A stretch of DNA of 60,777 nucleotides from Bdellovibrionales bacterium (lineage in GTDB: Bacteria > Bdellovibrionota > Bdellovibrionia > Bdellovibrionales > JAMPXM01). Position numbers and translations under genes: made by a program. Below the pieces are notes generated by a model. The model searched no databases. It was not told the origin of the DNA and was given only the letters and a program-made list of their open reading frames with translations. The stretch is taken from positions 1-60,777 of the forward strand of contig JAYTQQ010000191.1 in assembly GCA_043746635.1 (NCBI GenBank), in the 5' to 3' direction. This document shows positions 1,028-37,691 of this stretch, in pieces; position 1 is the stretch's first letter, and every line of letters begins with the position of its first letter.

Positions 1028-1816
1028 ATGTTGCAGACACGATATTTCGTAGCACATGACGGTGAACAAATGGGACCTTTTACCGTTGATGAGATCACCG
1101 CTAAAATTCAAAGTCGTGAACTAAGCGTGAGCGATTACGTTTTTGATGAAGCCGCTGCTGATTGGTTTATGATTGTCGCGCACCAAGGCTTTGCGGCGCT
1201 CGTACAATTCGCGAAGCCAGTACATGCACCTCGGCCCGAGCCAAAGAAATCTGCCGTTGACATCCCAGAGTGGTTTATCTTAAAAGGCCAAAACCGTTTT
1301 GGCCCGTATTCTTACTTCGATATCGTAAAACTTCTTCAGAGCCGTTCTTTGTTTGAATACGATTACGCTTGGAATCCAAATCTTGAAACTTGGCAGCTCA
1401 TCGCAGAGCTTCACGACTTCAAAGCCGAACGTATTAAAGAATTACAGACCTCAACTCAAACCGATATGAACGAAGTATTCTTTCGCAGACGCCACGCCAG
1501 AGCAAACTACGGTGCGTCTTTGATTGTTCACAACAACTCTAAAGTTTGGAAAGGCAAAAGCTTCGAGATTTCGCCGGGCGGTGCCGGTATCGAGCTTGAG
1601 TCAGGCAATTTACAAATTGGTCAGTCGATCAATATTCATTTTAAGCCGGGTGATGATGTGCCTCCATTTAACTCAAAATGTGAAGTGGTGAGCATGCGTT
1701 CAGTTGATCGCGATAATGAGAAAAAAGTTATTTACGGAATAAAGTTTTTAGAACTCGCACAGCAGACGCAAAATTACCTTGCGCAGTTTACCGAAAAGAA
1801 CGTCAGAGTATCGTAA
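1028..1816 (+). CDS. GYF_2 x2 + PilZ domain protein (predicted c-di-GMP receptor)
   Basis: ATG with GGAG 6 nt upstream. Two GYF-like modules are present (GEQMGPFTVDEITAKIQSRELSVSDYVFDEAAADW; GQNRFGPYSYFDIVKLLQSRSLFEYDYAWNPNLETW). The C-terminal PilZ signature is RRRHAR (RxxxR) followed by EISPGGAG ((D/N)xSxxG-like). Confidence 0.75.
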   Translation: MLQTRYFVAHDGEQMGPFTVDEITAKIQSRELSVSDYVFDEAAADWFMIVAHQGFAALVQFAKPVHAPRPEPKKSAVDIPEWFILKGQNRFGPYSYFDIVKLLQSRSLFEYDYAWNPNLETWQLIAELHDFKAERIKELQTSTQTDMNEVFFRRRHARANYGASLIVHNNSKVWKGKSFEISPGGAGIELESGNLQIGQSINIHFKPGDDVPPFNSKCEVVSMRSVDRDNEKKVIYGIKFLELAQQTQNYLAQFTEKNVRVS

Positions 1817-1914
1817 GAAAGTCATAAACTAAGACACGCCTTAACACTGCATGTACTCTCCCTAGGGCGCGGAGCAAAGATGAGAAATGTTTCTCATCTT
1901 TTGGGAGAGCTACA

Positions 1915-2946
1915 ATGAGAGTCGTACAAAAAATTTATACTTCTTTGATGGCACTTGCACTAATGGCGAGCTGCTCACAACAAAGTTTTGATCTCACTCC
2001 GCAAACCAAAAATTTTGCTCAAAGTGTGAAGTACAATCGCCAAGCCGACGTTCTCATCGTGATGGAAGCATCGGGCGCCATGGACCAACAAAAACGTTAC
2101 GCAGCGATTGCGGCCCAAATGCCGGCATTAGTGAAAGTACTAAACGCGGCAAACCTCGATTACCATATCGCCGTCACGACTATGACGACGCGTTTTCAGG
2201 ATCCGCAAACTCAAAACATGATCGGCCAGGGCGGACAATTTATCGATCACGGCGATGGTCTTCCTCTCGTTTTGAGTTCGACCCAACCTAACCTCGGAAA
2301 TGTTCTTGCGAACCGTCTTACTTTTAACTCGGGCGACTACTTATCTCCCGTTAATTTTGGCAGACTCGCGGTTCAGAACGCTTTAAGTTCACCGCTCCTG
2401 GCCGGGCTGAACTCTGGTTTCTTAAGAGACAATGCGCTTCTCAACGTCATTTTCATTTCTTCGAAAGAAGATGATGTTAACAATACGACTACTGTCGATC
2501 TCGTTTCGTTTCTTAATAAGTTACGCCCACCCCTGGCTACCACGGGCCAACGTAGCTGGTTCGCTCATTACGTTGGAGTTCTTTCGAATGCCACCACCGA
2601 CCAATGTGCTTCGGCACAGTGGGGCTATCGTTCGGCAGGTCTTAAATTCATGGATGTCGTGACTGCGTCGGGCGGATCAGCAACGACAATTTGCTCGAGC
2701 GACTTAACCGTTGCCGTACAAAATGTTCAGGCGCGTATTTTAGAAATTGTTACGGATTATCATTTAGATCAGATACCTAACGTTTCGACAATTTTAGTTT
2801 ACGAGGCAGGGGTTTTAGTTCCGCAAAACTCAACCAATGGTTGGACTTACGATTCGAGTATACAGTCGCTCGTGTTTCATGGCACTTCGATTCCGCCGGA
2901 CGGAACTCCATTTCATGTCGACTACACCCCAGCGAGTATACAATGA
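1915..2946 (+). CDS. Lipoprotein with vWA-like fold and degenerate MIDAS; first gene of the envelope operon
   Basis: Signal peptide with lipobox (LALMASC). The segment DVLIVMEASGAMD and the later VIFISSKEDD resemble vWA beta-strands with a degenerate DxSxS motif. The stop overlaps the next start (ATGA at 2943-2946). Confidence 0.55.
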   Translation: MRVVQKIYTSLMALALMASCSQQSFDLTPQTKNFAQSVKYNRQADVLIVMEASGAMDQQKRYAAIAAQMPALVKVLNAANLDYHIAVTTMTTRFQDPQTQNMIGQGGQFIDHGDGLPLVLSSTQPNLGNVLANRLTFNSGDYLSPVNFGRLAVQNALSSPLLAGLNSGFLRDNALLNVIFISSKEDDVNNTTTVDLVSFLNKLRPPLATTGQRSWFAHYVGVLSNATTDQCASAQWGYRSAGLKFMDVVTASGGSATTICSSDLTVAVQNVQARILEIVTDYHLDQIPNVSTILVYEAGVLVPQNSTNGWTYDSSIQSLVFHGTSIPPDGTPFHVDYTPASIQ

Positions 2947-5927
2947 AAATTTTGATCTCGGTTCTTCTATTCTTAAGTCTTTCTCAATCGGTTTTTGCCG
3001 GGCAAAAGTCTGCACCTAAAGACATGTCCGTTGAAGAGCAATTGAAATTTAAAGACGGAGACGAAAAAGGAAACGATATCAAGGCACTCAAAACAGAGCT
3101 TCTCGTGGAGAATAGCGAAAAGCACGCTCTCGCTCAATTGCAGAAACTACTTGAGAAACATAAAGGTAAAAAGCTAGAGGCAGATATTCTCTACCGCATG
3201 GGCGAACTCTATATGCGTCGTGCACGCAGTGAAAGATTTTTTGAAATTCATAAAGACGACAAAGAAATCATGAGCTTCTTGCCGACGATCGTGAAAGAAG
3301 GGGCCGAGAAAGTTCAGATCAAAAAAGCGATCGCTATCTATGAAGACGTTCAGTCCCGTTTCAAAAGCTATCGTAACATCGACATGATTATTTTTAATGA
3401 AGGTTACGCTCTCGAGCAACTCGGTGACGTAAAAATGGCCGAAACGACTTTCGCCAAGCTCATAAAAAATTATCCTGATTCACCTTTGTTGCCAGACGCG
3501 TATATGTCAGTTGGTGAGTTGAATTATAACAACAAGAAGTTTGCCGTAGCTCTCGAGAATTTTAAACAAGTTCGTAAATTCACCGAAGCTCGAGTCTATC
3601 CGTACTCGATCTACAAGGGTGCTTGGTGCTATTACAATCTTCAAAATACAAAAAATGGTCTTAAAGAACTAGAAGCTGTGGTCGAATACGGTGCAAAAAT
3701 TGCCGAATTAAAACTCGACGCTAAACTTGATCTTCGTAAAGAAGCATTAAGCGACATGACTCTCTTTTACTCGGATGTTGGTTCGAGCCAAAATGCTGTG
3801 GATTACTTTGTGGGACAAGCCCGTGAGCTTGATCCGGCTCCGATGTTAATTCGCCTTTCAGACCTCTACGACCGAGGTGCAAAGTACGCGGATATCGAAA
3901 CGCTTCTTAGCCATTTCATCGACAAAATGCCGAAAAACGAATTGGTCGCTAGCGCTAGAGAACGCCTCATATGGAATAATGAACATTTAAAGCTTCGTAA
4001 AAAAGCAGTCGAGCAAATGATGGCCCTCGACCAACTCTGTAAAGACCGCGCTACTGTATTGAGCAAGGCCGGCAAAATAGAACGCACAGATTGCCAAGAG
4101 AAGATTACCGATGCGAGCAAGAAATTGGCTCAAAGATGGCACGCTCTCTGGAAGAAAAAAGCCAACGAAGATGATCTCCTCCCGAGTGCGGAAGTCGCTT
4201 ACCAAATCTATTTACAAAATTTAGATCCAAAAGATGAAGAACAAAATCAGCTCCGGATGTCTTACGCTGAGCTCTTGTTTCAAGAAGAAAAATTTCGTGA
4301 AGGTTCAGTTCAGTACGCGAGTATCGATGCTTTTCATCCTGATAAAAAATTGGGAGTCGATGCGGCTTACGGAGCGATCTTAAGCTTAGAGAAAGCAACC
4401 GCTGATAAATGGAGCGACCTAGATGAAAAAAATTTTTCGATGTTGGCGAATGTTTATCTTACGAAATACCCAGCTGCTGATTTCGCACTCGATATCGAAT
4501 TTAAGAAATATTTTATCGCTTACCAGAAACAAAGATATGATGAGGCGGCGGTCGGGTTCAAAAAGCTCGGATGGAGCGAAACTGACAAGAAGAAATTAGG
4601 CCAAGACAAGATTATCAAGTCTCAAGATTTGTATCTTGATATTTTGAATATTCGAAAAGACTATAAAAATCTGAAAGAAGCGGCGAGCCTGTTGCTTAAG
4701 AAAGATTCGGATAGCTCTCGAATCGTCACCGTCGAGAAAATTTACCGTGAAGCTTACTTTGCGGAGATACAAGGTTTTGAAGAAAGCGGCGACACCGCTA
4801 AGGCAATCGAAGCTTACAAAAAGTTTGCGGTTGAACAAAAGAAAACAGAACTGGGACCTAAAGCTTGGTGGAACGCCTCTCAGCTCGAGTTTAAATCGGG
4901 CGACCTCTTATCTGGTGCAAACACTTGCTATCAGATGTCTAAATTATTTAAGGATAGTCCACAGGTAAAAGATTGTCTAACTAGGGCGGCTGGAGCTTTT
5001 GAATCTCTCGCTCGTTTAGATTTAGCGGCAGTTGTTTTAGTCGATCTTTGCGAATTTGATAAGGTAAATGAAAATCGGTGGCGTGAACTTGCTGCCGATT
5101 TCTTAGCTCTCAGTCGGAATCGTCAACAAGCGATTAGCATGTACGCGAAACTCGCTGAATCTCGCAAAGATTCTAGGGAGAAATTGGCACTCATCGAAAA
5201 GCAGCTCGATCTCGCCAAGCTCGATGAGAATCAAAAACAAATTTCGGATCTTAAAAGAGAAGTAGTGAGCTCAGGCGTCGAACCAGAAGTCAGCCAGATT
5301 TCGGTTGAACAAGCTGAACAAAAATTCACAGAAGGTGATTTTACCACTGCATTTAATATGTCTAAAAAAATAATTGGTCGAGACAATTTGCCTAAGAATC
5401 TCTTGGCGCGGGCTCGATTTATTCAGGCACAGGTACTTGATGACGAATTTAAAAAGCAAAGTGTTAAGGCCCACATTGAGAAAATTGCCACGGTACTTGC
5501 GATTAAAACTGAAAAGCTTGAGAAGGCACAGAAAGCATATCAGTCTGCGATCGAATTCGGTGATCCAGAGGTTTCTGTGAAATCGATTCGTAATCTCGCC
5601 GCTTGTTACTTACAGTACGCTCAGTCGCTTAGAAATATTCAGCTCAGTGGAGACGTCAGTGAAGTCGATCGAACGGCTTTTCATAAAGAGATCGAAAATC
5701 TGATCACCCCTATGGAAGACAAAGGAATCGACAGCTTAAATCAAGCTTTGATCGCGGCCAAAAAATTTCATTTCTACAACCAGATAGTTGTCGATATTCA
5801 ACGTGAATTAGACAAATTGAATCTTAAAACTGAGCCGCTTCCTCTCAATCAGATTCAAAGCCCTCCGATGTACTTACCTAAAAGAAGTATGAAGTTCGGT
5901 GGCCTCGCCGTTCTAGGAGGAAACTAA
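2943..5927 (+). CDS. Large secreted TPR-repeat protein, 994 aa (GltD/AgmU/NfsD-like?)
   Basis: I moved the start from the ORF-track position (2841) to ATG 2943, which gives a canonical signal peptide (MKILISVLLFLSLSQSVFAG). Multiple TPR-like repeats are present (e.g. FNEGYALEQLGDVKMAETTFAKLIKNYPDSPLLPDAYMSVGELNY). Confidence 0.6.
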   Translation: MKILISVLLFLSLSQSVFAGQKSAPKDMSVEEQLKFKDGDEKGNDIKALKTELLVENSEKHALAQLQKLLEKHKGKKLEADILYRMGELYMRRARSERFFEIHKDDKEIMSFLPTIVKEGAEKVQIKKAIAIYEDVQSRFKSYRNIDMIIFNEGYALEQLGDVKMAETTFAKLIKNYPDSPLLPDAYMSVGELNYNNKKFAVALENFKQVRKFTEARVYPYSIYKGAWCYYNLQNTKNGLKELEAVVEYGAKIAELKLDAKLDLRKEALSDMTLFYSDVGSSQNAVDYFVGQARELDPAPMLIRLSDLYDRGAKYADIETLLSHFIDKMPKNELVASARERLIWNNEHLKLRKKAVEQMMALDQLCKDRATVLSKAGKIERTDCQEKITDASKKLAQRWHALWKKKANEDDLLPSAEVAYQIYLQNLDPKDEEQNQLRMSYAELLFQEEKFREGSVQYASIDAFHPDKKLGVDAAYGAILSLEKATADKWSDLDEKNFSMLANVYLTKYPAADFALDIEFKKYFIAYQKQRYDEAAVGFKKLGWSETDKKKLGQDKIIKSQDLYLDILNIRKDYKNLKEAASLLLKKDSDSSRIVTVEKIYREAYFAEIQGFEESGDTAKAIEAYKKFAVEQKKTELGPKAWWNASQLEFKSGDLLSGANTCYQMSKLFKDSPQVKDCLTRAAGAFESLARLDLAAVVLVDLCEFDKVNENRWRELAADFLALSRNRQQAISMYAKLAESRKDSREKLALIEKQLDLAKLDENQKQISDLKREVVSSGVEPEVSQISVEQAEQKFTEGDFTTAFNMSKKIIGRDNLPKNLLARARFIQAQVLDDEFKKQSVKAHIEKIATVLAIKTEKLEKAQKAYQSAIEFGDPEVSVKSIRNLAACYLQYAQSLRNIQLSGDVSEVDRTAFHKEIENLITPMEDKGIDSLNQALIAAKKFHFYNQIVVDIQRELDKLNLKTEPLPLNQIQSPPMYLPKRSMKFGGLAVLGGN

Positions 5928-5928
5928 G

Positions 5929-6903
5929 ATGCGTGAACTTATTTTAGCGGCAATACTTTTAAGCTTTGGATGTGCGGAGAAAGGCGTGAAAGATGCAAAC
6001 TCAAATCCTAAGCAAAAATCGATGATCGTCGACCAAAAAAAAGTCAATACGGATATTTACTTTGAATCTTTCGATTTTAAGCCCTACGTTTTTGCAAAAT
6101 CTGCCGAAACTTGCCTACAGTTGGCCGAATTCAAAGGCAAAGACTGGAAAACCCTTCTCGAGAGCATTAACAACTGTGCACAAACGAATCAATGGCTCAG
6201 CGTTGAAACCACTGCGCAAGAGCTCGTTAAAACAAATGTCAATTCTCCATGGGGTCCTTACTATTTAAGTTTAGCGGCTGAATATAATAAAGACCTTCCG
6301 CGCGCGCTTTGGATGATTGATCTCGCAATTAAAAAGGCGTCATCGCAAATGGCGATCTTGCAGTATCAACGTGGCAGACTCCTGTGGCTGCTCGATCAAA
6401 AAGACCTAGCGTATAAAGAGATGACCTTGTCGGCGAGACTGGATAAGACCGTATTCGACGCGAATTTATTTCTCGCCGAAGTCGCTTATCACGAGCTTGA
6501 TTATAAAGCGGCAGAAGTTAAATTTAAGGAAGTCCTAAGCGTTGATTCGAAAAACTACGCGGCGCTCGTTGATGGTGCCGAGTGCGTGATCAATGGCGGA
6601 GATCCGAAATTGGCGGCCGAGTTTCTCGAAAAAGCAATATCTTCTCGTCCTGATAATTTGCAAAATCGCATGCGTCTTGCACAAGTTTACGAAGAGCTTC
6701 AGAAGCAGCCAGAATTGGCTCTAAACGCTTACCGCACACTCAAAGAAGCGATCAACCGTGGGACCGTTCACGATCATCCGTCAATTGATCTCAATGAAAA
6801 AATTAAAATGTTGGAAGCAAGCCTTCCTAAAAATTTGCCAAAAAATGCACCAAAAAATGCAACCGATTCGAACGTAAAGCGTGGCGCAGCCGGAACTTTT
6901 TGA
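5929..6903 (+). CDS. TPR-repeat lipoprotein, 324 aa (GltE/NfsE-like?)
   Basis: GGAGGA lies upstream of the ATG, and there is a 1-nt gap from the previous stop. Lipobox LLSFGC. TPR repeats are present. The C-terminus carries a PKNLPKNAPKNA repeat. Confidence 0.6.
   Translation: MRELILAAILLSFGCAEKGVKDANSNPKQKSMIVDQKKVNTDIYFESFDFKPYVFAKSAETCLQLAEFKGKDWKTLLESINNCAQTNQWLSVETTAQELVKTNVNSPWGPYYLSLAAEYNKDLPRALWMIDLAIKKASSQMAILQYQRGRLLWLLDQKDLAYKEMTLSARLDKTVFDANLFLAEVAYHELDYKAAEVKFKEVLSVDSKNYAALVDGAECVINGGDPKLAAEFLEKAISSRPDNLQNRMRLAQVYEELQKQPELALNAYRTLKEAINRGTVHDHPSIDLNEKIKMLEASLPKNLPKNAPKNATDSNVKRGAAGTF
6826..6861 (+). repeat. 12-nt tandem repeat x3 encoding PKNL/PKNA/PKNA
   Basis: The units are cctaaaaatttg | ccaaaaaatgca | ccaaaaaatgca, in frame inside the 5929-6903 CDS. 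Confidence 0.8.
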
Positions 6904-6913
6904 GAGGAGATTT

Positions 6914-7177
6914 ATGAAAATAAAATTCAGTTTACAAAGCTTCATCGTGATTTTGGCAGCACTGAGTGTGTTCACAACATCGACAGTATTTGCCAAAACG
7001 GTGAAGTATCGTAAGACCCAAGATGTAAATTTTGATGAGACAAATATTGATGGGGTCGTACGTAATCCAGATGGAGCGTATCTCGTTCAAAAACGAGGCA
7101 TCGACTTCATGCCCCTCTATAAAGTTAGGCGCAATTTTGACGAAAACATTAAAGAGTCCGCGTACTACATTAAATGA
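6914..7177 (+). CDS. Small secreted protein, 87 aa (GltF/NfsF-like position)
   Basis: ATG 6914 is preceded by GAGGAGA. Signal peptide MKIKFSLQSFIVILAALSVFTTSTVFA. The mature part is about 60 aa and charged (VNFDETNIDGVVRNPDGAYLVQKRGIDFMPLYKVRRNFDENI). The stop overlaps the next start (ATGA 7174-7177). Confidence 0.6.
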   Translation: MKIKFSLQSFIVILAALSVFTTSTVFAKTVKYRKTQDVNFDETNIDGVVRNPDGAYLVQKRGIDFMPLYKVRRNFDENIKESAYYIK

Positions 7178-7965
7178 CCGATTTTAAGACTCTGGGAGCT
7201 TTTATGAAAATGACAACAAACCTCATTCTGTCAGGAATTCTGATTTTAGCGCCGCATGCATTCGCTGCGGATCTAAAGTCCGCGCCTACGGCTTCGGACA
7301 ATTCAGCGGCTGCGCAGCCGAATTCAGATAAGCTCGACGTTTCCGATCTTGAAAAGAAATATTGGACGGCTAAAGACACTGATTTTTCTGTCGTTCAGAA
7401 CCGCGCGTACGCAAAAGCAAATCGTTTTGCCTTCTCGGCCATGTACGGACCAGTGATAAATGACTCGTACTCTGACGGTTTTTCTTATGATCTTTCGCTT
7501 CAGTACTTTACGAGCGAACGTTCTGGTTTTGAGCTCGAGTATGTGACGAATATTACAAAAGATAACAATGCGGTGAATGTATTTAACAATCAATACGGAA
7601 CACGTCCCGACTTTGATCGTACGACAAGCTACTACGGAGCGAATTGGAACTGGGTTCCGATCTACGCAAAAATGAGTTTGATGAATTCTAAGATTCTTTA
7701 TTTTGATATGGCATTTAGCCCAGGTATCGGAGTTACAAACTACGATCAACAGAGATATAATGCATCAAGTGTTTCAAAAACGGCTCCGACTTTTTCTTTT
7801 AACGTTACTCAGCACTTCTTTCTCTCGAACCATTTTGCAATTCGTGGAGAGTTTCAGAACCGTTGGTTTAATGAAGACATTGTTGGATATAAGTCGAACG
7901 CGAGCGTGCGCACCGATTTCGCTCATGATACTAACCTTTTGTTTGGACTTGATTTCTTCTTTTAA
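7174..7965 (+). CDS. Outer-membrane beta-barrel protein, about 260 aa (GltA/GltB/NfsA/B-like?)
   Basis: Signal peptide (LILAPHAFA; alternative starts at 7204 and 7210). Alternating hydrophobic/aromatic beta-strand pattern. The terminus LLFGLDFFF is a typical OMP C-terminal Phe signature. Confidence 0.65.
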   Translation: MTDFKTLGAFMKMTTNLILSGILILAPHAFAADLKSAPTASDNSAAAQPNSDKLDVSDLEKKYWTAKDTDFSVVQNRAYAKANRFAFSAMYGPVINDSYSDGFSYDLSLQYFTSERSGFELEYVTNITKDNNAVNVFNNQYGTRPDFDRTTSYYGANWNWVPIYAKMSLMNSKILYFDMAFSPGIGVTNYDQQRYNASSVSKTAPTFSFNVTQHFFLSNHFAIRGEFQNRWFNEDIVGYKSNASVRTDFAHDTNLLFGLDFFF

Positions 7966-7977
7966 TAGAAAGTTTTT

Positions 7978-10455
7978 ATGAAACAAGCTTTGAAAAAATC
8001 GAAAGCTATTTTAAATCTAGCGATTATATCTAGCTTAGCGCCGGCATTTTTTATCTCAACCGCGGCGGCGCGTCACCAAGATCCTGCGGGTGTTTACAAC
8101 GCTGAAGTTTACCGTGAGCGTGTGAGTTCAGCGGTAGCAAGTGTTGTTCAGTCATCAACTTATACTCCAGAGGTGAGACCGGGTTCCTTGCTCAAAGTAT
8201 TACCTCAAAAGGCAGCACCAACACAGGCTGTAGCTCCTAGGACTGCAGCTGACAAAATCGTTTCTCAGGTGAAAAACTTTTTCTTTGGTGCTGACAGCAA
8301 ACCAGAACCGATTCACGCCGCTGCTTCTGTGGCTCAAGATCAAGTTCAACCGAAGAGATTGCCGAGTTCGGCGGTCGTTGCGCCCGCGGCTCTAACGAAT
8401 AAAGAGGCGATTCAAAAACCAAATCATGATGTTACTCGAAATCTTCCGGTGAATAAATCTGGTGTTGAAACTTACCTGATTACGTCTCCAAAAATTCCTT
8501 ACTTAGAAGTAACAAAAGAATCGAAGATCGACTCACAAACTTATCGCCTTTCGACTGACTCTGAAAAGAAATTTGCAGACTACGCTATCGCTCCAATCAC
8601 ATCTCCAGAAGTGATCGGCGCAAAAGTATTTCAGGATATGAATAGAGCGCAACCGACAACTCAGAACCCTCAGTTCGCAAAAATGAATGCATCGAAGTTT
8701 GAACCTGTGACCCATGCCGACCTCGACAAAGTAGAGTGGATGTCAACGATGGACACTCCGATCAATCTCATCAAGTTTACTCCACTATCCGCTGATGAAA
8801 TTCGATTACTCAATGGTATTTTACTTTACCGTCAGGGTGACAAATGTGCCGTTGCGGTTAGCTTATTTTATCCGCTCACGAAAACGGCGTTTTACGAAAG
8901 CGAAGGAAATTACTTTCTCGCAATGTGCTCAAAACAACTTGGTCTCATGACCGATTTTTACGAAAAATCGCGTAGAGTTTTTGAGGCCGAAGATCTTCAC
9001 TACAGCAAAAAACTCTTCAAAGTTTTGAGCGAAGATGTTCCGCCTGAAGTCATCGATGGGCTAGGTAAAGCACTTTTCAAATTGTCGGCGAATAAAAAAG
9101 CATTCGAAGACGTTGACCCAATCGTTAAGGGGAATGTTTATTTTATCTTAGCAAACTTTGGTGCAAAGACCGAGAGATTCAAAACGACGCTCAGTTATTC
9201 ACAACTCGTTCCAGAAAAACATCCGAAATTTCTCGAGGCGCAGTTTTTGAGGGCCCTTGCTGAATACGAAACGGGCGATAAAGTAAAAGCGATGGAGATT
9301 CAAGAAAATCTCATCAAGCAACTGGCGCTCGACAAAAAGAATGATGAATTTCAAGCGCTGGTGGCACTTAACCTCGCACGCATGCAGTTTCAAGAGAAAA
9401 AATTTAAGGAAGCCCGAGAAAATTTTTTAAAAGTTTCGAAAGATCATCCAATGTGGGTTCAGAGTTTGACCGAAATGGGTTGGTCACAACTTCAGATGTC
9501 TGACTTTGGCGGCGCGATCGGTAATATGTATTCCCTCCAGTCACCATTTTTTAATGCCGTTTACAAACCAGAGAGCTACGTCATTCGTACTATTGGCTAT
9601 TTGAACCTCTGCCAATATGGTGATGCTTACAAAACTTTAAGTATCCTTGAAAAACAGTATCGTCCGGTTTTAGACAAGATGGTCTCCTACCAATCCGGAA
9701 GCGGTCATCAGGCCTACCAGACGATCAAGACATATATTTCTTCGAAGGTAGCGATCAACGAAGTCGATGGATTACCGGCTCCGGTCATTCGCGAAATGGC
9801 GAGACATAAAGATTTCCTGGTGAGACAGCTCGCCCTCAATCGCCAGTCTGAAGAGAGAGACATTTACACAAGGCTTGATCGCGACGTTGAAATAAGCCTC
9901 GCGAAGGCTCAAGCCACCGTAACGAAATCAAGAGCGAAGATTGAGCTTCTTAAGAAGAACATTATTCTCGCGGGTAACAATGGACTTCAGGCCGAAGCAA
10001 AAAAACAGATGGAGAGCGACCTCGAGCATGAATTCAAAACTCTCAACGCTCAGTTTTTTCAGATCGATCTATTTAACGATGCAAAGAAGGCCGTTTCGGC
10101 TTACCGTGCAGAGTCGGTCAAACTCGCGGAGCAAAGGATCGCGGCGAGTAAAGTTGAACTCGAAAGCACATTGCAAAAACGTTTGACCAGCATGAAAGAA
10201 GATCTTATCCGTATTTTAGATAATAACGAATTGCTCAGATACGAAGTCTATTCGGGTAGCGGCGAAAACATTCGCTTTCAAGTTGCGGGTGGAGAGAAAT
10301 CAAATCGTGTTCCGGCAAGTGTTCTTCCGAAATCAAAAAGTCTTCAATGGGACTTTGACGGCGAATACTGGGAAGACGAAATTGGCCATTACCGATCATC
10401 ACTTAAAAATAATTGTCCTGATAGCAGACAGGCTCGCAACGGAGGAGAACAGTGA
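7978..10455 (+). CDS. Large secreted protein with Pro/Ala-rich N-region and TPR-like repeats, 825 aa (GltC/NfsC-like?)
   Basis: N-terminal signal-like segment (ILNLAIISSLAPAFFISTAAA). A low-complexity A/P/Q-rich linker is followed by helical repeat regions and a coiled-coil C-terminal third. Confidence 0.55.
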   Translation: MKQALKKSKAILNLAIISSLAPAFFISTAAARHQDPAGVYNAEVYRERVSSAVASVVQSSTYTPEVRPGSLLKVLPQKAAPTQAVAPRTAADKIVSQVKNFFFGADSKPEPIHAAASVAQDQVQPKRLPSSAVVAPAALTNKEAIQKPNHDVTRNLPVNKSGVETYLITSPKIPYLEVTKESKIDSQTYRLSTDSEKKFADYAIAPITSPEVIGAKVFQDMNRAQPTTQNPQFAKMNASKFEPVTHADLDKVEWMSTMDTPINLIKFTPLSADEIRLLNGILLYRQGDKCAVAVSLFYPLTKTAFYESEGNYFLAMCSKQLGLMTDFYEKSRRVFEAEDLHYSKKLFKVLSEDVPPEVIDGLGKALFKLSANKKAFEDVDPIVKGNVYFILANFGAKTERFKTTLSYSQLVPEKHPKFLEAQFLRALAEYETGDKVKAMEIQENLIKQLALDKKNDEFQALVALNLARMQFQEKKFKEARENFLKVSKDHPMWVQSLTEMGWSQLQMSDFGGAIGNMYSLQSPFFNAVYKPESYVIRTIGYLNLCQYGDAYKTLSILEKQYRPVLDKMVSYQSGSGHQAYQTIKTYISSKVAINEVDGLPAPVIREMARHKDFLVRQLALNRQSEERDIYTRLDRDVEISLAKAQATVTKSRAKIELLKKNIILAGNNGLQAEAKKQMESDLEHEFKTLNAQFFQIDLFNDAKKAVSAYRAESVKLAEQRIAASKVELESTLQKRLTSMKEDLIRILDNNELLRYEVYSGSGENIRFQVAGGEKSNRVPASVLPKSKSLQWDFDGEYWEDEIGHYRSSLKNNCPDSRQARNGGEQ

Positions 10456-11099
10456 GAAATTTAAAAACAAAATTAATAATTCTAAGCTCAGTGATGGGTT
10501 GCGTATTTTCGGGGCAAGCCGAAACGAATATTCCTGAAAAGGTCGTTCAGCTAAAAGAAAATGTTGATGCAAGTCACGAGAACTTAAGGCAGTACGAAGA
10601 CAATCTTAAAATCGTTAATCAGAATCTGAAAGAAACGCAAGCGGCGATGAAGCAGCTCGATAAACAAAAGCTGGCGATTCATAAGCAGCTTGACGATTCT
10701 CAAAAGGGAAAGATGACGGTTGAGAATTCTAAAAAACAACTTCAAGGTTTCATGAAAGTTGAGCAAGATAAATCAGATGTCGAAAAGAAGCAAATCGAAG
10801 ATCTGAAAGCCACGCTCGCCAAGCTCGATGCGAATCAGTTGAAACGACAAGAAAATATCGCTGCTTACCAGGCAAAGTTGCAAACGATGGAGTCTGAACA
10901 AAATAACGTTCAAGCTCATCATCAAGAAATTGTTGATTTAGAAAGAGCTCTGCAAGAGAAGACTGCCCAAGCTCAAAAAGATCAAAAAGCACTGGCTGAG
11001 AAAAAAGTCAGCTACGAGCAAGAAGTCGCCAAATGGAAAAAGCAAGGGCGCTTGTCTGAACGCAATTACGCTAACTTCAAAGATTTAAAAGACGAGTAG
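10452..11099 (+). CDS. Coiled-coil lipoprotein, 215 aa
   Basis: The GTG start overlaps the preceding stop (GTGA 10452-10455), with GGAGGAG upstream. Lipobox SSVMGC. The remainder is heptad-like and Q/K/E-rich. Confidence 0.6.
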   Translation: MRNLKTKLIILSSVMGCVFSGQAETNIPEKVVQLKENVDASHENLRQYEDNLKIVNQNLKETQAAMKQLDKQKLAIHKQLDDSQKGKMTVENSKKQLQGFMKVEQDKSDVEKKQIEDLKATLAKLDANQLKRQENIAAYQAKLQTMESEQNNVQAHHQEIVDLERALQEKTAQAQKDQKALAEKKVSYEQEVAKWKKQGRLSERNYANFKDLKDE

Positions 11100-11126: not shown

Positions 11127-12092
11127 TTAAGGATTGGACTCATTCAGAAAACGAGAGACCTCTTCGGGAAATTCTTCTCCGGCGCGGTGGCTCACGCCAT
11201 CGGCGCGAACGTAAAGACCACGGTACTCCATTGGCACACGCTCAAACAAATCTGATTTATCTGAAGATGGCAAAACGAGATCGGCAAGTCCGTCTAATAT
11301 GTTCACCTTGGTTTTTATGGCGGTGAGCTGAGAAGCATTCTCTAACGGAATTCCCATAAATAAATCATAAGCCGCCGTCACTTCGTTTAAATCAAAAGCC
11401 TCTTCAGACTGCGCGGCGTATTCTCCCCGGGCACCTAAATACATCAAGAGATCACGAATATTTTGGGAATTAATGGGGCCTACACCAGAAATATTTTTGA
11501 GGCGCATATAGATTGGCGCAAACGCAACATTTGCAATGGGCGACAGTGGGTTGATCAGATTGAGTGACGCTACAGTTATTTTGTCTCGATTAAAAATATC
11601 TATCGCGGCTTGAATCGCCACCGCCGCACCGTACGATTCTCCGACTAGGACGAGCTTGGTTTTATCGATGCGTAGTTGATCGAGAATTGAAATGAGATCT
11701 TGAGACTGCACCGGCACCGGAATTACCTGCAGGATGGGTGATTTTGAAATCAGTTCGCCTTGGCCTTCCAACTCAAGCTGTAAAATGCCGTATCCGAGAG
11801 GTAAAAGAAGATCGGCTACGTGATCAAAACTTTCGATGTCAGAGTCAAGACCTCCGATAAAAACGAAAATACTTTTGGCAAGATTTGATGGGGCCACGAA
11901 ATGCACCGGAAGATTCACTCCAGAAGCGGCCGGAATATATTGAACGTCCAAGCGGGGAGGGGTCGTTTTTTCAACTCGCACGGCAGCTTCTTCGGAGGCC
12001 TGAGGTGCGCTTGCGAACTGCGTAGTTTCATCGCTATAAGCGTGAACGACCGATAGAGTTGTTAGTATAAATAGGAGAAATCCCCGAAGCAT
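11127..12092 (-). CDS. Secreted alpha/beta hydrolase
   Basis: I moved the start to ATG 12092, which gives the signal peptide MLRGFLLFILTTLSVVHA. The nucleophile elbow is GESYG (VLVGESYGAAVA). Confidence 0.7.
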   Translation of the reverse strand: MLRGFLLFILTTLSVVHAYSDETTQFASAPQASEEAAVRVEKTTPPRLDVQYIPAASGVNLPVHFVAPSNLAKSIFVFIGGLDSDIESFDHVADLLLPLGYGILQLELEGQGELISKSPILQVIPVPVQSQDLISILDQLRIDKTKLVLVGESYGAAVAIQAAIDIFNRDKITVASLNLINPLSPIANVAFAPIYMRLKNISGVGPINSQNIRDLLMYLGARGEYAAQSEEAFDLNEVTAAYDLFMGIPLENASQLTAIKTKVNILDGLADLVLPSSDKSDLFERVPMEYRGLYVRADGVSHRAGEEFPEEVSRFLNESNP

Positions 12093-12202
12093 CGCAAGCC
12101 CCCTTGCCAACAGGAAGAAAGAGCAAATCCGGCGCCAAGCTGAATGGCTCTCAGAGAATACGAGAAGAAAAGAGCTCTGAAAAAATAACAAAACTTGAGC
12201 CT

Positions 12203-12252: not shown

Positions 12253-13734
12253 TTACAGCGTCGATAATTTATCGACGTTTAATTTTCCGCCGCTGATCGA
12301 TTTGCCTTTCATCGCTTCGATCGGAGTTGCCGAATCAAGCAGTGCTTTTTTCACATCCTGCCATTTTGCCTCTGGATGTTTTGACCAGTACAAAGCAAGT
12401 GCGCCCGCAACCTGCGGAGCCGCCATCGAAGTGCCATCCCAAGTTGCCTTGAAACCGAAAACATTAAAGAGTGTATCGGCATAAGTGTTGCCAACCGTTG
12501 TTGAAAACACTTGTACGCCTGGTGCCGCGATGTGAACCGTTTTCAAACCCCAGTTTGAAAATTTTCCGAGTTTGTTCTCTTTATCAATCGCCGCAACGCT
12601 TATGATATTATCGATTGCGTAGCTCGCAGGAACTCCCGGTTTTGGATCGGTATCGTTGTCGTAACCAATGCCCTTGTGCCCGTTGCCGGCAGCGAAAACG
12701 AAGAGCACGCCTTTTTCTTGGCCGCCCGTGATCACTTCTTTCAGGGCGTGGTTGTCTCCAGCTTCTTTTGGGTCTTCGCCTTCAGAGCCCCAAGAGTTCG
12801 ACAAAACACGTGCGCCGTTATTGATCGCGTACATGATTGCTTTGATCGCTCCAGCGGTATCGCCCTGACCGGACTTACTGATAAAGCGAAGGCCCATGAT
12901 CTTTGCGTCTGGAGCCACTCCGACTGTGCCTTTTCCGTTGCCGGCTTTTGCCGCAATATTTCCGGCGCAGTGAGTGCCGTGACCTGGATTTTCACCTTTT
13001 AGAACCACATCTAGAATTTGACCGTGAACATCGTAAGGTTTGTTATCATTGTCAGAAAAATCCCAAGCCATCACGTCATCGATGTAACCGTTGCCGTCGT
13101 CGTCAACGTTGTTGTTCGATTTATCATGACCTTGGTTATCGAAGCCCATTTCGCCTTCGTTTCTCCACATATTGTCGACCAAGTCTTCATGATTATAGTC
13201 TACACCCGAATCAATGACCGCGACGATGATGCCTTTGCCGGTTGCTTGCTTCCACGCATTTTTGACTCCGATGTCTTGCATGCCCCACTGATTTTTATAA
13301 AACGGATCTTCTCCGTTTCCGCCGGAGCTTATCAAAATCACGGGAAGATTCGGCTTCATGACAGGGGTGGGATCCGGGTTTGAAGCGCTTTCTTTGACGA
13401 GCTCGGCCAAGAAATTGGGATCCTGCAGTGCTGCCGGGTTTGCGTAATCTTCAATGAGGTGGAGTTTGTAGTTCGCTTGAACGTATTCGACATTGGGATT
13501 GTTTTTTAAATTCGCGAAATTTGCAAAGGCACTGACCGGAGCCGTCATATGAACGATATTGCCAAAGCCGAGATTGTCGACTTTTATTCCACTTCGAAAG
13601 TTGATTGCCGTAAATTGAGTCAAAGCTGCCTTGCTTTTAAACTTTACGATGACGTCGTTCTCGTCAACGGCTTGAGAAACTGACGAAAAACCGAGCGCGA
13701 GGCCGATACTAAATAGAACTACGAAAAATTTCAT
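12253..13734 (-). CDS. Secreted subtilisin-family (S8) serine protease
   Basis: Signal peptide MKFFVVLFSIGLALGFSSVSQA. The catalytic triad motifs are DSGVDYNHEDL (Asp), HGTHCAGNIA (His) and GTSMAAPQVAG (Ser). Confidence 0.9.
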   Translation of the reverse strand: MKFFVVLFSIGLALGFSSVSQAVDENDVIVKFKSKAALTQFTAINFRSGIKVDNLGFGNIVHMTAPVSAFANFANLKNNPNVEYVQANYKLHLIEDYANPAALQDPNFLAELVKESASNPDPTPVMKPNLPVILISSGGNGEDPFYKNQWGMQDIGVKNAWKQATGKGIIVAVIDSGVDYNHEDLVDNMWRNEGEMGFDNQGHDKSNNNVDDDGNGYIDDVMAWDFSDNDNKPYDVHGQILDVVLKGENPGHGTHCAGNIAAKAGNGKGTVGVAPDAKIMGLRFISKSGQGDTAGAIKAIMYAINNGARVLSNSWGSEGEDPKEAGDNHALKEVITGGQEKGVLFVFAAGNGHKGIGYDNDTDPKPGVPASYAIDNIISVAAIDKENKLGKFSNWGLKTVHIAAPGVQVFSTTVGNTYADTLFNVFGFKATWDGTSMAAPQVAGALALYWSKHPEAKWQDVKKALLDSATPIEAMKGKSISGGKLNVDKLSTL

Positions 13735-13914: not shown

Positions 13915-14508
13915 ATGAGTACAACGTCAACTGCTCCGAACTCTAAGCCGTTAACTGGGCCGTTAACTAAACCAACATCTGATCCTCACGATCAGAGTAT
14001 CGAAAATTTATCGCAATCTTTTGCTTTTGCGACGAAGCTCGATGATCTTGTCGCATGGGGCCGCAAAAATTCTCTCTGGCCAATGCCCTACGGAACAGCC
14101 TGTTGTGGAATTGAACTCATGAGTGTCATGGGACCAAAGTACGATCTCGCGAGATTTGGTGCTGAGGTTGTGAGATTTTCTCCACGTCAGGCCGATCTTC
14201 TTTTAGTCGCGGGAACTATTACCGAAAAAATGGCTCCGGTTCTTGTTCATATTTATCAACAAATGCTAGAGCCAAAATACGTGATCTCGATGGGTGCATG
14301 CGCAAGTTCGGGTGGTTTCTACCGCTCTTACCATGTCCTTCAAGGAATTGATCGCGTGGTTCCCGTTGATGTTTTTGTTCCGGGTTGTCCTCCGACTCCT
14401 GAAGCAGTTCTCGACGGAATCATGACACTTCAAAGAATGATTGCAGAACACAAACCACGTCCGTGGAGAGATAACTGGAAGGCGCCGAATGATGCTCAAC
14501 CTAGATAA
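13915..14508 (+). CDS. nuoB: NADH-quinone oxidoreductase subunit B
   Basis: Motifs [18 protein letters not shown] and VPGCPP (N2 cluster ligands). It has a roughly 35-aa Thr/Pro-rich N-terminal extension. Confidence 0.9.
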
Positions 14509-16207
14509 GAATCAAACTCCGCTCAGTAAAAATTTAGAAAATTTGCAAAGCTCACTCGGTTCTTTCTTCGGAAATAAAATGAGCTGCTTTCAATTTCGTA
14601 CAAGTTTTGGTGATGATTGCATCGAAGTTCCGAAAGAAGATGTCGGCAATTTACTTCGCTTCTTAAGAAATCAATCTCAAATTGATTTTTTGATGGATGT
14701 TTGCGGAGCCGATTACCCTGATCGCAAACAGCGCTTTGAAGTCGTCTATCATTTATTTAATTCGAAAACTTACCAACGTTTGCGATTGAAAACTCGTCTC
14801 GCTGAAGGCGAAACGCTTGAGACAGCAACCAGCATCTGGAAGGGTGCCACGTTCTTTGAGCGCGAAGCCTACGACATGTTCGGAATGAAATTCGACGGAC
14901 ACAAAAACATGAGTCGTATTTTGACTCATCATCAGTTTCAAGGTCATCCGCTTCGTAAAGATTACGATGCCGATCATCAACAACACTGTTCGAATGCGAT
15001 GCCCGTGCATTTTGCTCCAGATCCGAATTGGGATCCAAAGGGTCGCAACCTTGTTCCTTTGAATATTGGTCCTGCGCACCCGGCCACCCACGGAACTCTT
15101 CGCGTGATGGCTGAGCTCGACGGCGAAACCGTTGCGCGTGCTCACGTTGAACTCGGATTTTTGCACAGATGTTTTGAAAAAATGGCAGAGACTCATCCTT
15201 ACAACCAGGTGATTCCTTATACGGATCGTTTGAACTATTGTTCGGCCCCAATGAACAACGTTGGCTACTGCAAAACGGTTGAGAAAATGCTCGGCGTGAC
15301 GATTCCGCCAAAGGCGATGGCGATGAGAGTGATCTTAGCTGAGCTTTCTCGCATCATCGATCACTTTGTGTGCATCGGGGCGAATGCGGTCGATCTCGGT
15401 GCCCTCACCGGATTCTTTCATCTCTTTACTTACCGTGAACAAGTCTACTCTTTGTTTGAAAAACTTTGTGGAGCTCGTCTCACGGTTTCTCTCACGCGCA
15501 TCGGCGGCATGGCTCAAGATGCGCCCGAGGGGTGGTACGATGAAGTTTTGCAAGTCTGTAAAAATATTCGCCACGGTATCGAAGAGCTCGATACTCTCAT
15601 GACCGGCAATAAAATTTGGATTGGGCGCACGCAAAACGTAGGCCGAATTTCTCCCGAAGACGCGATTGCTTGGGGTTATACTGGTCCTCTCTTGAGGGCG
15701 ACAGGCGTTCCGCTTGATCTTCGTAAAGCGACTCCTTATTACGGTTATGATCAACTTGATTTTGATATTCCGGTTGGGTCGAGCGGCGATGTTTTTGATC
15801 GTTATCTCGTTCGCGTTGAAGAAATGCGCCAGTCTCTTAAAATCATCGAGCAAGTTTGCAAAAATATTCCTGAAGGTGATTACACGATTCGCGACCGCGG
15901 AATCGTTTTGCCAGAGAAAAAAGACGTTTACGGAAATATCGAAGGCCTTATGAATCACTTTATGCTCGTGATCAAAGGTTTGCGACCACCGGTTGGCGAA
16001 ACTTACGACGCGACAGAAGCAGCGAACGGCGAGCTCGGATTTTACCTCGTGAGCGACGGGTCGGGCAGACCTTACCGATTGAAGGTGCGTCCGCCGTGCT
16101 TTGCAATTTATCAGAGTTTCGTTGAGCAAGTCACCGGAGGGCCTGTCGCCGACGTGATCGCAATTTTAGGAAGTATGAATTTAATCGCCGGTGAATTAGA
16201 TCGCTAG
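14489..16207 (+). CDS. nuoCD: NADH-quinone oxidoreductase fused subunit C/D
   Basis: ATG 14489 overlaps the nuoB end. The NuoC part carries [14 protein letters not shown]. The NuoD part carries [12 protein letters not shown] and the C-terminal [11 protein letters not shown]. Confidence 0.9.
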
Positions 16208-16269
16208 AAAGCGCAGAGCGATTTAGAATTGCCCCTATCGCGGAGCAATTGAAAAGGAGAATGTACGAC

Positions 16270-16749
16270 ATGTTTACACTTTCAAAAGACGGACTCGATT
16301 ATGTTCAAAAAGAATTGAGCAGATACGAGAATAAGCAATCGGCGATTATTCGTTGTTTATACAAAGCTCAAGATGAAAATGGCGGCTGGCTCAGCCAAGA
16401 AGCCATGCACGCTTTAGGTGATGTCATGAAGATTCCGGTTGCGCAGATTGAAGAAGTCGCGACTTTCTACACGATGTTCAACATGAAGCCCCAAGGCAAA
16501 TACCATATTCAAGTTTGCTGTACTCTCACTTGCGCCATGGTCGGAGCCCGCGAGATGACCGACCTCATGATGAAAGAGTGCGGAGTGAAGAACCTCGGTG
16601 AAGTGAGCAAAGACGGCAGATTTAGTTTTAGTAAAGTCGAGTGTCTTGGCTCTTGCGATACGGCTCCGATGTTACAAATTAACCGTGATCCCTACATTGA
16701 AAATCTCAACGACGAAAAAGCTTTGAAGTTAATGAAGGAGCTTAAGTAA
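16270..16749 (+). CDS. nuoE: NADH-quinone oxidoreductase subunit E
   Basis: 2Fe-2S ligand motifs QVCCTLTCAMVG and VECLGSCDTAP. I prefer start 16270 because AAGGAGA lies about 10 nt upstream. ATG 16261 is the alternative. Confidence 0.85.
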   Translation: MFTLSKDGLDYVQKELSRYENKQSAIIRCLYKAQDENGGWLSQEAMHALGDVMKIPVAQIEEVATFYTMFNMKPQGKYHIQVCCTLTCAMVGAREMTDLMMKECGVKNLGEVSKDGRFSFSKVECLGSCDTAPMLQINRDPYIENLNDEKALKLMKELK

Positions 16750-16750
16750 A

Positions 16751-19544: not shown

Positions 19545-20065
19545 TTCAGGTTAAAAAACCTTCGGCTTCATCGCAGTGGTACTTCGTCGGAATTTTCAGC
19601 GGCATGGCGCTCACGATGAAAAAAATGATCGTGAATCTAGCGAACAAAAAGAAAATGCCGACACTGAATTATCCAGAAGAGAAGTACGAATATTCGAATC
19701 GCTTTAAGGGTAATCACGTTTTGACGGTTAAAAAAGATGGTTCTTTAAGATGTACGGCCTGCATGCTGTGCGCGACGAACTGCCCCGCAGAATGTATACA
19801 TATCGTGGCTGCTGAAAATCAAGATCCGTCGGTCGAAAAATATCCGATTCAGTACGAGATCGATATTCTTCGGTGCGTATTTTGCGGATTTTGCGAAGAG
19901 GCTTGCCCGGTCGATGCCATCCGCATGGGACCTGAATGGCAGACTCCGGCTTTGAATGGCAGCAAATTCATTTACGATATTCAGCATCTCGCATACCGTC
20001 CGAATTTAAAAGGTGGAGTCGTCACCATACTCGACGATAAAGAGCGCCACGAGGCTGGTATTTGA
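19541..20065 (+). CDS. nuoI: NADH-quinone oxidoreductase subunit I
   Basis: Two 4Fe-4S ferredoxin motifs, CTACMLCATNCP and CVFCGFCEEACP. The start overlaps the nuoG stop (ATGA). Confidence 0.9.
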   Translation: MIQVKKPSASSQWYFVGIFSGMALTMKKMIVNLANKKKMPTLNYPEEKYEYSNRFKGNHVLTVKKDGSLRCTACMLCATNCPAECIHIVAAENQDPSVEKYPIQYEIDILRCVFCGFCEEACPVDAIRMGPEWQTPALNGSKFIYDIQHLAYRPNLKGGVVTILDDKERHEAGI

Positions 20066-37571: not shown

Positions 37572-37691
37572 ATTGAGTGAACTCCGTTTCGAACTTCTTA
37601 GCCGTACTCAAAGATACTGCGTCAAAATTTCTACTTGCAAGATTTGAGTTGTACCCTCATTTTTATGAAGAGCACAAAAGGATTTTCATTC

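Follow-up and report, generated by a model that had tools for sequence, protein, structure and literature searches.

A conserved eight-gene unit encoding envelope proteins

We analyzed a 60,777-nt stretch of DNA from a Bdellovibrionales bacterium (assembly GCA_043746635.1, contig JAYTQQ010000191.1; the whole 60.8-kb stretch is hereafter the window), in which a sequence-only reading had pointed to a tightly packed operon of seven genes for exported proteins at positions 1915–11099, resembling a Glt/Nfs-type trans-envelope machine. All seven open reading frames (ORFs), here named P1 to P7, were found as described: they are co-directional on the + strand, follow one another almost without spacer, and encode exported products, with signal peptides assigned by eye (Table 1). 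The gene order of P1–P7 was seen again in dozens of species-level genomes, which places the arrangement far beyond chance. Overall, we interpret the locus as an orthologue-type of the Bd1482–Bd1473 gliding cluster of Bdellovibrio bacteriovorus, from the Agl–Glt focal-adhesion machine, and its products as the outer, adhesin-carrying half of a gliding apparatus that would be driven in trans, a reading to which we assign a probability of roughly 0.7.

The conserved unit starts one gene before P1, rather than at P1 as first proposed, with a gene encoding a cytoplasmic protein with two GYF_2 domains and one PilZ domain. In almost every Bdellovibrionales locus, this GYF-PilZ gene lies directly 5′ of the cluster; in one of them (L003) it overlaps its downstream neighbor, and an identical copy in L001 carries the GYF_2 and PilZ Pfam labels. 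Its product conserves the motifs RRRHAR (RRxxxR) and EISxGG (E-x-S-x-x-G) and is a candidate receptor for cyclic di-GMP (c-di-GMP) and the putative counterpart of B. bacteriovorus Bd1482. Upstream of the same gene in L085, a related locus bearing motor genes, a GGDEF (diguanylate cyclase) gene at 3848–4639, ~2.3 kb 5′ of the GYF-PilZ gene, may provide a local source of c-di-GMP for the PilZ protein.

Read from the sequence, the junctions consist of an ATGA overlap at 2943 (P1/P2), a 1-nt gap at 5928 with GGAGGA upstream (P2/P3), a 10-nt gap carrying GAGGAG that had gone unlisted (P3/P4), an ATGA at 7174 as listed (P4/P5), a 12-nt gap at 7966–7977 (P5/P6), and a GTGA at 10452 with GGAGGAG upstream (P6/P7). 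While the earlier assignments at 2943, 5928, and 10452 and the 12-nt gap stood, translational coupling at 7174 is doubtful: GGGAG is found 4 nt 5′ of ATG 7204 and no Shine–Dalgarno sequence precedes 7174, pointing to 7204 as the more likely start of P5, so that the ATGA overlap may not represent real coupling. Exact look-up of the P5 products starting at 7174, 7204, and 7210 in the gene collection gave no match. The GC content is ~43–45% across the operon region and unremarkable.

Table 1 Features of the operon (positions in the window) and P1-like genes of related loci (positions in each locus).
Feature	Locus	Positions	Strand	Size	Remark
GYF-PilZ gene, cytoplasmic product	Window	1028–1816	+	262 aa	Two GYF_2 + PilZ
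Predicted RNA structure	Window	1852–1914	+		Hairpin AGAUGAGAAA...UUUCUCAUCU then UUUU, inside an outer stem
P1, predicted vWA-fold lipoprotein	Window	1915–2946	+	343 aa	
P2, secreted tetratricopeptide repeat (TPR)/helical protein	Window	2943–5927	+	994 aa from ATG	GltD (AgmU) position
P3, TPR lipoprotein	Window	5929–6903	+	324 aa	GltE-like
P4, secreted GltF/CglF homologue	Window	6914–7177	+	87 aa	
P5, outer-membrane beta-barrel	Window	7174–7965	+	263 aa	GltA/GltB type, FFF end
P6, secreted GltC-like protein	Window	7978–10455	+	825 aa	
P7, secreted coiled-coil-type protein	Window	10452–11099	+	215 aa	GTG start
P1-like lipoprotein genes	L055	11884–16008			Three in tandem
P1-like lipoprotein gene(s)	L048	2827–6327			
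P1-like lipoprotein gene(s)	L056	7534–8604			
P1-like lipoprotein gene(s)	L063	15424–16908			

Non-TPR components match gliding-specific models

The resemblance to Glt systems was confirmed by profile comparisons, here through NCBIfam gliding models named for Myxococcus proteins, and the encoded proteins are very probably homologues of Glt components. Pfam was uninformative for P1–P7, returning TPR repeats and one sub-threshold OMP_b-brl match only. P4 matched NF033764 (gliding_CglF; CglF = GltF, PMC4488436) at 2.3e-10, with residues 23–83 aligned to model positions 25–85 of 88, i.e., the whole mature protein, although below the 90-bit equivalog cut-off. All 34 P4 orthologues tested match this model and no other, and the mature 60 residues are highly conserved; P4 is a GltF/CglF homologue. 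P5, ending in FFF, matched TIGR04565 (OMP_myx_plus) over residues 92–263 with 80.9 bits vs. a 60-bit cut-off and is an outer-membrane barrel of the GltA/GltB type, as a single barrel and not a pair. P6 matched NF033756 (gliding_GltC) over two stretches with E = 2.5e-28, which shows homology to GltC, but its 99 bits fall short of the 450-bit equivalog cut-off. In P6, the N-terminal third is of low complexity and the core consists of TPRs; a coiled-coil segment and a highly conserved C-terminal domain complete the protein, with a C-terminal block NNELLRYE...GEYWEDE that is invariant in the orthologue alignment; a word-seeded homologue search with P6 returned close orthologues only. The models used do not separate Glt from the spore-coat Nfs system, an assignment that is unlikely on taxonomic grounds.

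The two TPR-containing genes before P4 are assigned with different degrees of support. P3 has a Cys15 that is invariant in 35 orthologues, along with TPR repeats, consistent with the lipoprotein call. Its match to NF033758 (gliding_GltE) is weak (6e-4), with equal or higher scores for generic TPR models; across the family, 24 of 35 orthologues match gliding_GltE (best 7e-11), with generic TPR models matching them equally well. Position after P2, together with the fusion of P3 to P2 in L057, L062, and L086, as in Bd1478, favors GltE, so that P3, a conserved lipoprotein with TPRs, is placed in the GltE slot. P2 gave only local TPR/YbgF-like and BamD-type matches in Pfam and NCBIfam, all below cut-off. 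P3 and P4 invariably come after it, and in ancestral-type loci the motor genes come before it (see below). Its 994 aa are in line with the GltD (MXAN_4870) homologues Bd0417 (987 aa) and Bd2374 (996 aa), listed along with Bd1478 in Luciano 2011 (Table S3). On these grounds, i.e., position, size, and the published table, we place P2 in the GltD slot, as a positional assignment.

P7 had been called a lipoprotein, which is probably incorrect: Cys17 is not conserved in ~55 orthologues. Common to these is a site of the signal-peptidase-I type, A-x-A and then (K/R/E)-T-(D/N)-V, with a highly conserved mature N-terminus. P7 is therefore probably a secreted coiled-coil protein, with a mature part of ~190 residues. 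It has no Pfam family, its sequence matches in the PDB are coiled-coil noise (haemagglutinin HA2, designed helical bundles), and a single-sequence AlphaFold2 model yielded helices at 29–85 and 90–197 with a predicted TM-score (pTM) of 0.32. P7 follows P6 in ~60 loci and is a constant member that closes the unit throughout the Bdellovibrionales loci; L055 has P6 and P7 in swapped order. It presumably is the equivalent of Bd1473.

P1 is a vWA lipoprotein related to known adhesins

The lipoprotein call for P1 stands, with Cys20 invariant in the P1 family. The sequence-only reading had set P1 aside as an extra unrecognized among Glt components, yet counterparts exist in B. bacteriovorus (Bd1483 and Bd0875) and in Myxococcus (CglB and CglD). 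An AlphaFold2 model built on 25 homologues (mean predicted local distance difference test score 79, pTM 0.76) was compared with the PDB using Foldseek: it matched integrin beta headpieces and the vWA domains of ITIH1, SpaC, and TRAP (probability 1.0, TM ~0.4), from which P1 is predicted to hold a vWA domain within a beta-sandwich, resembling the beta-I plus hybrid domains of integrins. No Pfam domain was found in P1, including no VWA or Bat match. Against NCBIfam NF052240, the model of Bd0875-type adhesins with a metal-ion-dependent adhesion site (MIDAS), P1 showed a significant but partial match at 1e-9, and given its 38 bits vs. a 700-bit cut-off, it is not a Bd0875 orthologue. A full HMM search placed the P1 family at 17,784 proteins at E ≤ 1e-3, which refuted an apparently narrow family of 30 matches, close orthologues only, from a word-seeded search as an artefact; a cluster-member look-up of ten P1 relatives gave no informative names.

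In the P1 of the window and its closest relatives, the MIDAS motif V-I-D-T-S-G-S-M is changed to V-M-E-A-S-G-A-M, and P1 of this subclade further shows an ~8-residue insertion after the motif and N-F-G in place of a conserved E-R-G. This suggests that metal-dependent ligand binding was altered or lost in the window sublineage. MIDAS-intact P1 relatives keep DTSGS; they match NF052240 at 1e-11 to 1e-23 and also gliding_CglD, in its vWA region (1e-5 to 1e-14). P1 is related to Bd0875-type MIDAS adhesins and, via its relatives, to CglD. P1 is the candidate adhesin.

Motor genes and GltG are absent here but present in relatives

Within the window, phmmer searches with AglR, AglQ, AglS, and GltG (AglR/Q/S queries from L045 and L068) gave no match among ORFs ≥40 aa at E ≤ 10, bearing out the earlier statement that no AglRQS/TolQR-type motor and no GltG/J are encoded there. 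In addition, P4 and P5 abut, leaving no space for a gene where relatives carry GltG. The earlier description as a trans-envelope machine does not fit the locus taken alone, which encodes only periplasmic and outer-membrane parts along with one cytoplasmic PilZ protein.

A P6-profile scan of species-representative genomes returned 80 loci, in which the cluster proteins were mapped by phmmer. These loci derive from metagenome-assembled genomes (MAGs) of Bdellovibrionales/Pseudobdellovibrionaceae (31–75% P6 identity) or, with 21–28% identity, from Oligoflexia plus a small number of unclassified MAGs, the nearest relatives of the window being uncultured “Bdellovibrionales bacterium” MAGs. Type I loci (n = 13) carry, in order, PilZ, AglR (TolQ-like), two TolR-like genes, P2, P3, P4, GltG, P5, P6, and P7. 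Type II (7 loci) shows the same order without motor genes; one additional locus, L067, shares the type II order and carries motor genes 5′ of the PilZ gene. Type III (1 locus) reads PilZ, P1, P2, P3, P4, GltG, P5, P6, P7, and type IV, the arrangement of the window (at least 16 loci), PilZ and P1 through P7 with neither motor nor GltG. Finally, type V (17 loci in Oligoflexia and unclassified MAGs) combines AglRQS, barrel, GltC, GltD, GltE, and GltG. The PilZ-first glt order is shared by at least 40 related loci.

GltG, which lies between P4 and P5 in related loci, matches NF033760 at 4e-49 in type I, with an AgmX/PglI C-terminal domain at 107 bits vs. a 40-bit cut-off, and precomputed Pfam labels in L085 include MotA_ExbB, ExbD (twice), and FHA. 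Type IV covers every locus with a P6 ≥42% identical to that of the window, corresponding to at least 16 species-level MAGs, and where 10 kb on either side of these loci were fully sampled, no AglR/Q/S or GltG homologue was found there. In a neighbor-joining tree of P6, which is distance-based and rough, type IV forms one clade nested among motor-bearing lineages. Taken together, the ancestral order is GYF-PilZ, AglR/Q/S motor, GltD, GltE, GltF, GltG, barrel, GltC, and the coiled-coil protein; because sister lineages carry motor and gltG in the operon and the type IV clade is nested among them, their absence from the type IV operon is a derived loss, not as an ancestral compact state.

Beyond the window, the survey points to general features of this cluster type. 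The GYF-PilZ gene heads the operon almost universally, and a vWA/MIDAS lipoprotein recurs in or beside the cluster, either after PilZ or as one to three P1-like genes just downstream of P6/P7 in some motor-bearing type I loci (Table 1). The P1-like proteins in L048, L055, L056, and L063 all have a lipobox, in most cases followed by a PSFSL motif, and the D-x-S-G-S MIDAS motif was detected in three downstream proteins, namely the second copy of L055 and those of L056 and L063. Individual loci deviate: an HNH endonuclease gene lies between the GltF-like and barrel genes of a window-type operon in L003 (15385–16443, − strand) and also in L004, and the GltD-like gene of L026 (4645–7708) is split into three ORF fragments, representing either a pseudogene or long-read assembly frameshifts and the sole sign of decay seen in the clade. 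Overall, the survey leaves the picture of what the system is unchanged.

A proposed outer gliding module driven in trans, and alternative readings

Agl–Glt gliding is understood mainly from Myxococcus, and the path of force from the motor through GltG and a GltD/E/F/C shaft to an adhesin platform is still a model. By analogy, the P5 barrel and the GltC-like P6 would form an outer-membrane platform that presents or retains P1 at the surface, as GltABHK–GltC does for CglB in Myxococcus, with P2, P3, and P4 as a periplasmic shaft beneath it and P7 as a further coiled-coil strut in the periplasm, particular to Bdellovibrionales. A proton-driven motor of the TolQR type and a TonB-like GltG, both encoded at other sites of the genome, would supply the force; several paralogous Agl/Glt sets are known from Bdellovibrio genomes. 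The cytoplasmic GYF-PilZ protein would couple activity to c-di-GMP, and the output would be surface gliding or adhesion, e.g., movement within prey biofilms.

Within this scheme, drive in trans is somewhat favored over a motor-free role, on two grounds. First, P4 is equally conserved in GltG-less and GltG-bearing loci, and in Myxococcus, GltF is modeled to bridge GltC to the TonB-like domain of GltG (PMC11761067). Second, the operon, which otherwise encodes exported proteins only, still begins with the gene for a cytoplasmic PilZ protein.

Several observations weigh against this interpretation. The search for motor and GltG covered the 60.8-kb window of the genome, and the reading depends on their presence elsewhere in it; gliding in the uncultured window-type clade is predicted from its genes. 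Because P3, P4, and P6 score below the equivalog cut-offs, they qualify as homologues and not as proven functional equivalents. Neither P2 nor its relatives in other loci matched a GltD model in NCBIfam, and among the 120 matches listed of the 223 obtained in a P2 profile search, only orthologues with generic names and no link to GltD were found. The likeness to B. bacteriovorus HD100 was drawn from gene order, sizes, and published tables, HD100 not being among the 80 loci. The degenerate MIDAS of P1 (E-A-S-G-A, and N-F-G for E-R-G) weakens a role as a metal-dependent adhesin, and a clean deletion of Bd1483 in HD100 had no effect on prey invasion or predation (PMC11003981).

The most serious alternative, which we consider possible but unlikely, is a motor-independent derivative, i.e., a static envelope scaffold or adhesion platform that would no longer transmit force and would display the vWA lipoprotein for attachment to prey or substratum, with any effect of c-di-GMP via PilZ being indirect. 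It would account for an operon that lacks motor and GltG and includes P1 across a clade of at least 16 species-level MAGs, and for the absence of motor and GltG within 10 kb in fully sampled loci and throughout the window. In HD100, too, a partial set without motor genes occurs, Bd3598–3601, consisting of barrel, GltC, and GltF homologues only (Luciano 2011, Table S3), and the related MIDAS lipoprotein Bd0875 is an adhesin at the predator–prey interface (PMC11003981). However, absence from the operon says little about the cell, as in Myxococcus, too, the motor genes lie apart from the glt clusters. A static platform would further leave unexplained why GltD-, GltE-, and GltF-like proteins are kept and conserved, since these have no known role besides force transmission and the partner of GltF in the Myxococcus model is the TonB-like domain of GltG, while the cytoplasmic PilZ gene at the operon head implies a connection with some component of, or at, the inner membrane. 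A similar view, to which we give slightly less credence still, is that the module works without proton-motive drive, either as a c-di-GMP-tuned passive adhesion or envelope-bracing structure or energized by a partner new to Glt systems.

It is very improbable that the operon is a decaying remnant of a gliding cluster, heading for loss after deletion of motor and gltG. Two deletions did remove four genes relative to the ancestral order, the P1 MIDAS motif is degenerate in the window subclade, and one relative has an HNH endonuclease gene between P4 and P5, but none of the eight ORFs is disrupted, neighboring genes overlap or almost touch, the ribosome-binding sites are good, and P2 is split in a single locus only (L026). 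Moreover, lineages that share no more than 40–50% protein identity still have the eight genes in this order, which requires long-term purifying selection.

Least credible of all, and effectively refuted, is an operon unrelated to Glt (a Tol–Pal/CpoB or Bam accessory, type IV pilus TPR, or Bat-like operon): P2 does match YbgF/CpoB (TIGR02795, 1.6e-14) and BamD TPR models locally, P3 matches PilW, PrsT, and BcsC TPR models, and a vWA protein beside TPR proteins superficially recalls BatA–E, but these are short TPR stretches below curated cut-offs (YbgF, 54.5 vs. 90.1 bits), the locus has no TolQRAB–Pal, BamA–E, pilus genes, MoxR ATPase, DUF58, or membrane-anchored BatA/B, the non-TPR components (P4, P5, and the C-terminal part of P6) match gliding-specific models only, and orthologous loci carry GltG.

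A long-conserved operon that keeps all periplasmic and outer-membrane parts without motor and GltG is a useful natural comparison for the machine as a whole: one motor–GltG unit may serve several outer modules in trans, which would bear on how paralogous Bdellovibrio clusters are used by life-cycle stage, or else the outer module may have a function of its own.

Regulatory signals and genomic neighborhood

The 98-nt spacer between the PilZ gene and P1 (1817–1914) is predicted to form an RNA structure (Table 1), the outer stem of which pairs ACUCUCCC with the P1 Shine–Dalgarno sequence GGGAGAG. The fold of 1817–1917 reached −29.4 kcal/mol (z = −3.2 vs. 200 shuffles), and a ACTCTCCC box and the spacer hairpin are partly conserved in L006 and L007. 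The structure matched no Rfam family. It might tentatively be viewed as an attenuator or translational control element of P1. More broadly, an Rfam scan of the window matched no family, with no c-di-GMP riboswitch ahead of the operon, and scans for sigma-70 promoters and intrinsic terminators at the operon ends remained at background level. Since fliA lies just upstream of the PilZ gene, a sigma-28 promoter 5′ of that gene was also sought by eye; the best candidate, GCCAGATAA at 931–939, was dropped for its wrong spacing to any TAAA.

Regarding the surrounding genes, the FliA-like sigma factor gene occupies 46–735 and is followed by a perfect inverted repeat at ~741–781. The cluster is situated immediately downstream of flhF (SRP54), flhG (ParA/MinD-like), and fliA (sigma-28), as seen upstream in L001 (1–958), i.e., the same contig extended upstream in another assembly; other loci have different neighbors upstream of the cluster. 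Convergent genes follow the operon from 11127, encoding a secreted alpha/beta-hydrolase-like protein (11127–12191, −) and a subtilisin-like serine protease of 493 aa that carries a signal peptide (12253–13734, −), both identified by eye and both typical predator exoenzymes. Next is a nuo operon (13915–20065, by eye) with nuoB, a fused nuoC/D (588 aa), nuoE, nuoF, nuoG, and nuoI, in which the ORFs of nuoB–nuoCD and nuoF–nuoG overlap as listed, probably from the earliest-start ORF listing. Farther away, the + strand encodes a 270-aa protein (30901–31713), possibly nucleoid-associated, in which a histone-H1-like Lys/Ala/Pro-rich N-terminal half (AKKPAKP... repeats) is followed by an acidic segment and, at the C-terminus, a small folded part; a Tex-like protein (32078–34972) with an unusually long ~250-aa C-terminal tail rich in Arg, Pro, Asp, and Gln; and a topoisomerase I (37635–40538) with a Lys/Pro/Ala-rich C-terminal tail.

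Comparison with known gliding systems

Among characterized systems, the Agl–Glt machine of Myxococcus xanthus comprises the clusters G1 (gltD–J), G2 (gltK-B-A-C), and M1 (aglRQS), along with the adhesins CglB and CglD. The window shares with it the GltF, GltA/B-type barrel, and GltC homologues, while a TPR lipoprotein and a ~1000-aa TPR protein would take the roles of GltE and GltD, and a vWA-domain outer-membrane lipoprotein is the candidate adhesin. The motor is unlinked from the glt genes in Myxococcus, likewise in the window. Unlike in Myxococcus, all window genes stand in one operon, with one barrel vs. two and no GltG, GltJ, GltH, GltI, or GltK. P1 is a predicted vWA domain in a beta-sandwich, whereas CglB combines a beta-propeller with a vWA domain and CglD measures 1124 aa. 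P7 and the GYF-PilZ protein have no Myxococcus counterpart, although Myxococcus GltJ has a cytoplasmic GYF domain (PMC11761067).

Two further groups are informative. Clusters of the Oligoflexia and Bd0828–0838 type encode homologous barrel, GltC-like, and GltD-like proteins (P6 identity 21–28%), yet in another gene order and with motor and GltG present; the 17 Oligoflexia-type loci seen contain no GltF, P7, PilZ, or vWA lipoprotein. For Bd0875-type adhesins (NF052240; Tyson et al. 2024), the published architecture, a vWA domain inserted in a beta-sandwich in both Bd0875 and the lipobox-plus-MIDAS lipoprotein Bd1483 (PMC11003981), agrees with the P1 model. The differences are that these adhesins have D-x-S-x-S where P1 has E-A-S-G-A and that the P1 gene sits inside a glt operon. 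A cap region is described as unique to Bd0875 (PMC11003981).

The closest known system is the Bd1473–Bd1483 region of HD100, where c-di-GMP controls gliding and the PilZ gene Bd1482 stands at the 5′ end of one gliding operon (Hobley 2012, PMC3271064), and where transposon insertions in Bd1481 and in Bd1483 both reduce biofilm predation (Medina et al. 2008, PMC2277423). HD100 has four complete Agl/Glt-like clusters, expressed at different life-cycle stages. In the one considered here, Luciano 2011 (Table S3) lists Bd1481 as AglR, Bd1480 as TolR-like, Bd1479 as AglS, Bd1478 as GltD (1237 aa), Bd1477 as GltF (82 aa), Bd1476 as GltG (488 aa), Bd1475 as a GltB (MXAN_2539) homologue (254 aa), and Bd1474 as GltC (713 aa). 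As tabulated, this cluster appears to correspond gene for gene to type I, and Bd1478 is a GltD–GltE fusion like those in L057, L062, and L086.

The window displays the same order of PilZ, GltD(-E), GltF, barrel, GltC, and one further gene, with similar sizes (GltF, 82 aa in HD100 vs. 87 aa here; barrel, 254 aa vs. 253–263 aa). In both, a MIDAS/vWA lipoprotein is attached, the barrel is single, and GltH, I, J, and K are missing. The joining of gltD-E-F to gltA/B-C in one operon, which the sequence-only reading had singled out, is thus real but not special: together with the single barrel and the lack of GltH/I/J/K, it is the normal state in Bdellovibrio. Differences lie in the motor genes (Bd1481–1479) and GltG (Bd1476), for which the window has no equivalents, in GltD and GltE being separate here and fused in Bd1478, in the vWA lipoprotein gene, found between PilZ and GltD in the window and, as Bd1483, beyond the PilZ gene Bd1482 by locus-tag order, and in the MIDAS motif, degenerate in P1 vs. 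the HD100-type lipoprotein.

The Myxococcus Agl–Glt machine, the related Bdellovibrio clusters (2011), and B. bacteriovorus gliding genes (2008) were thus already known. The window-type architecture was not found discussed in the literature searched, the coverage of which is incomplete. What the present analysis adds is a long-conserved architecture limited to the outer-membrane and periplasmic half of the machine, with a vWA lipoprotein gene inside the operon, and the recognition of GYF-PilZ and P7 as constant members of the cluster.

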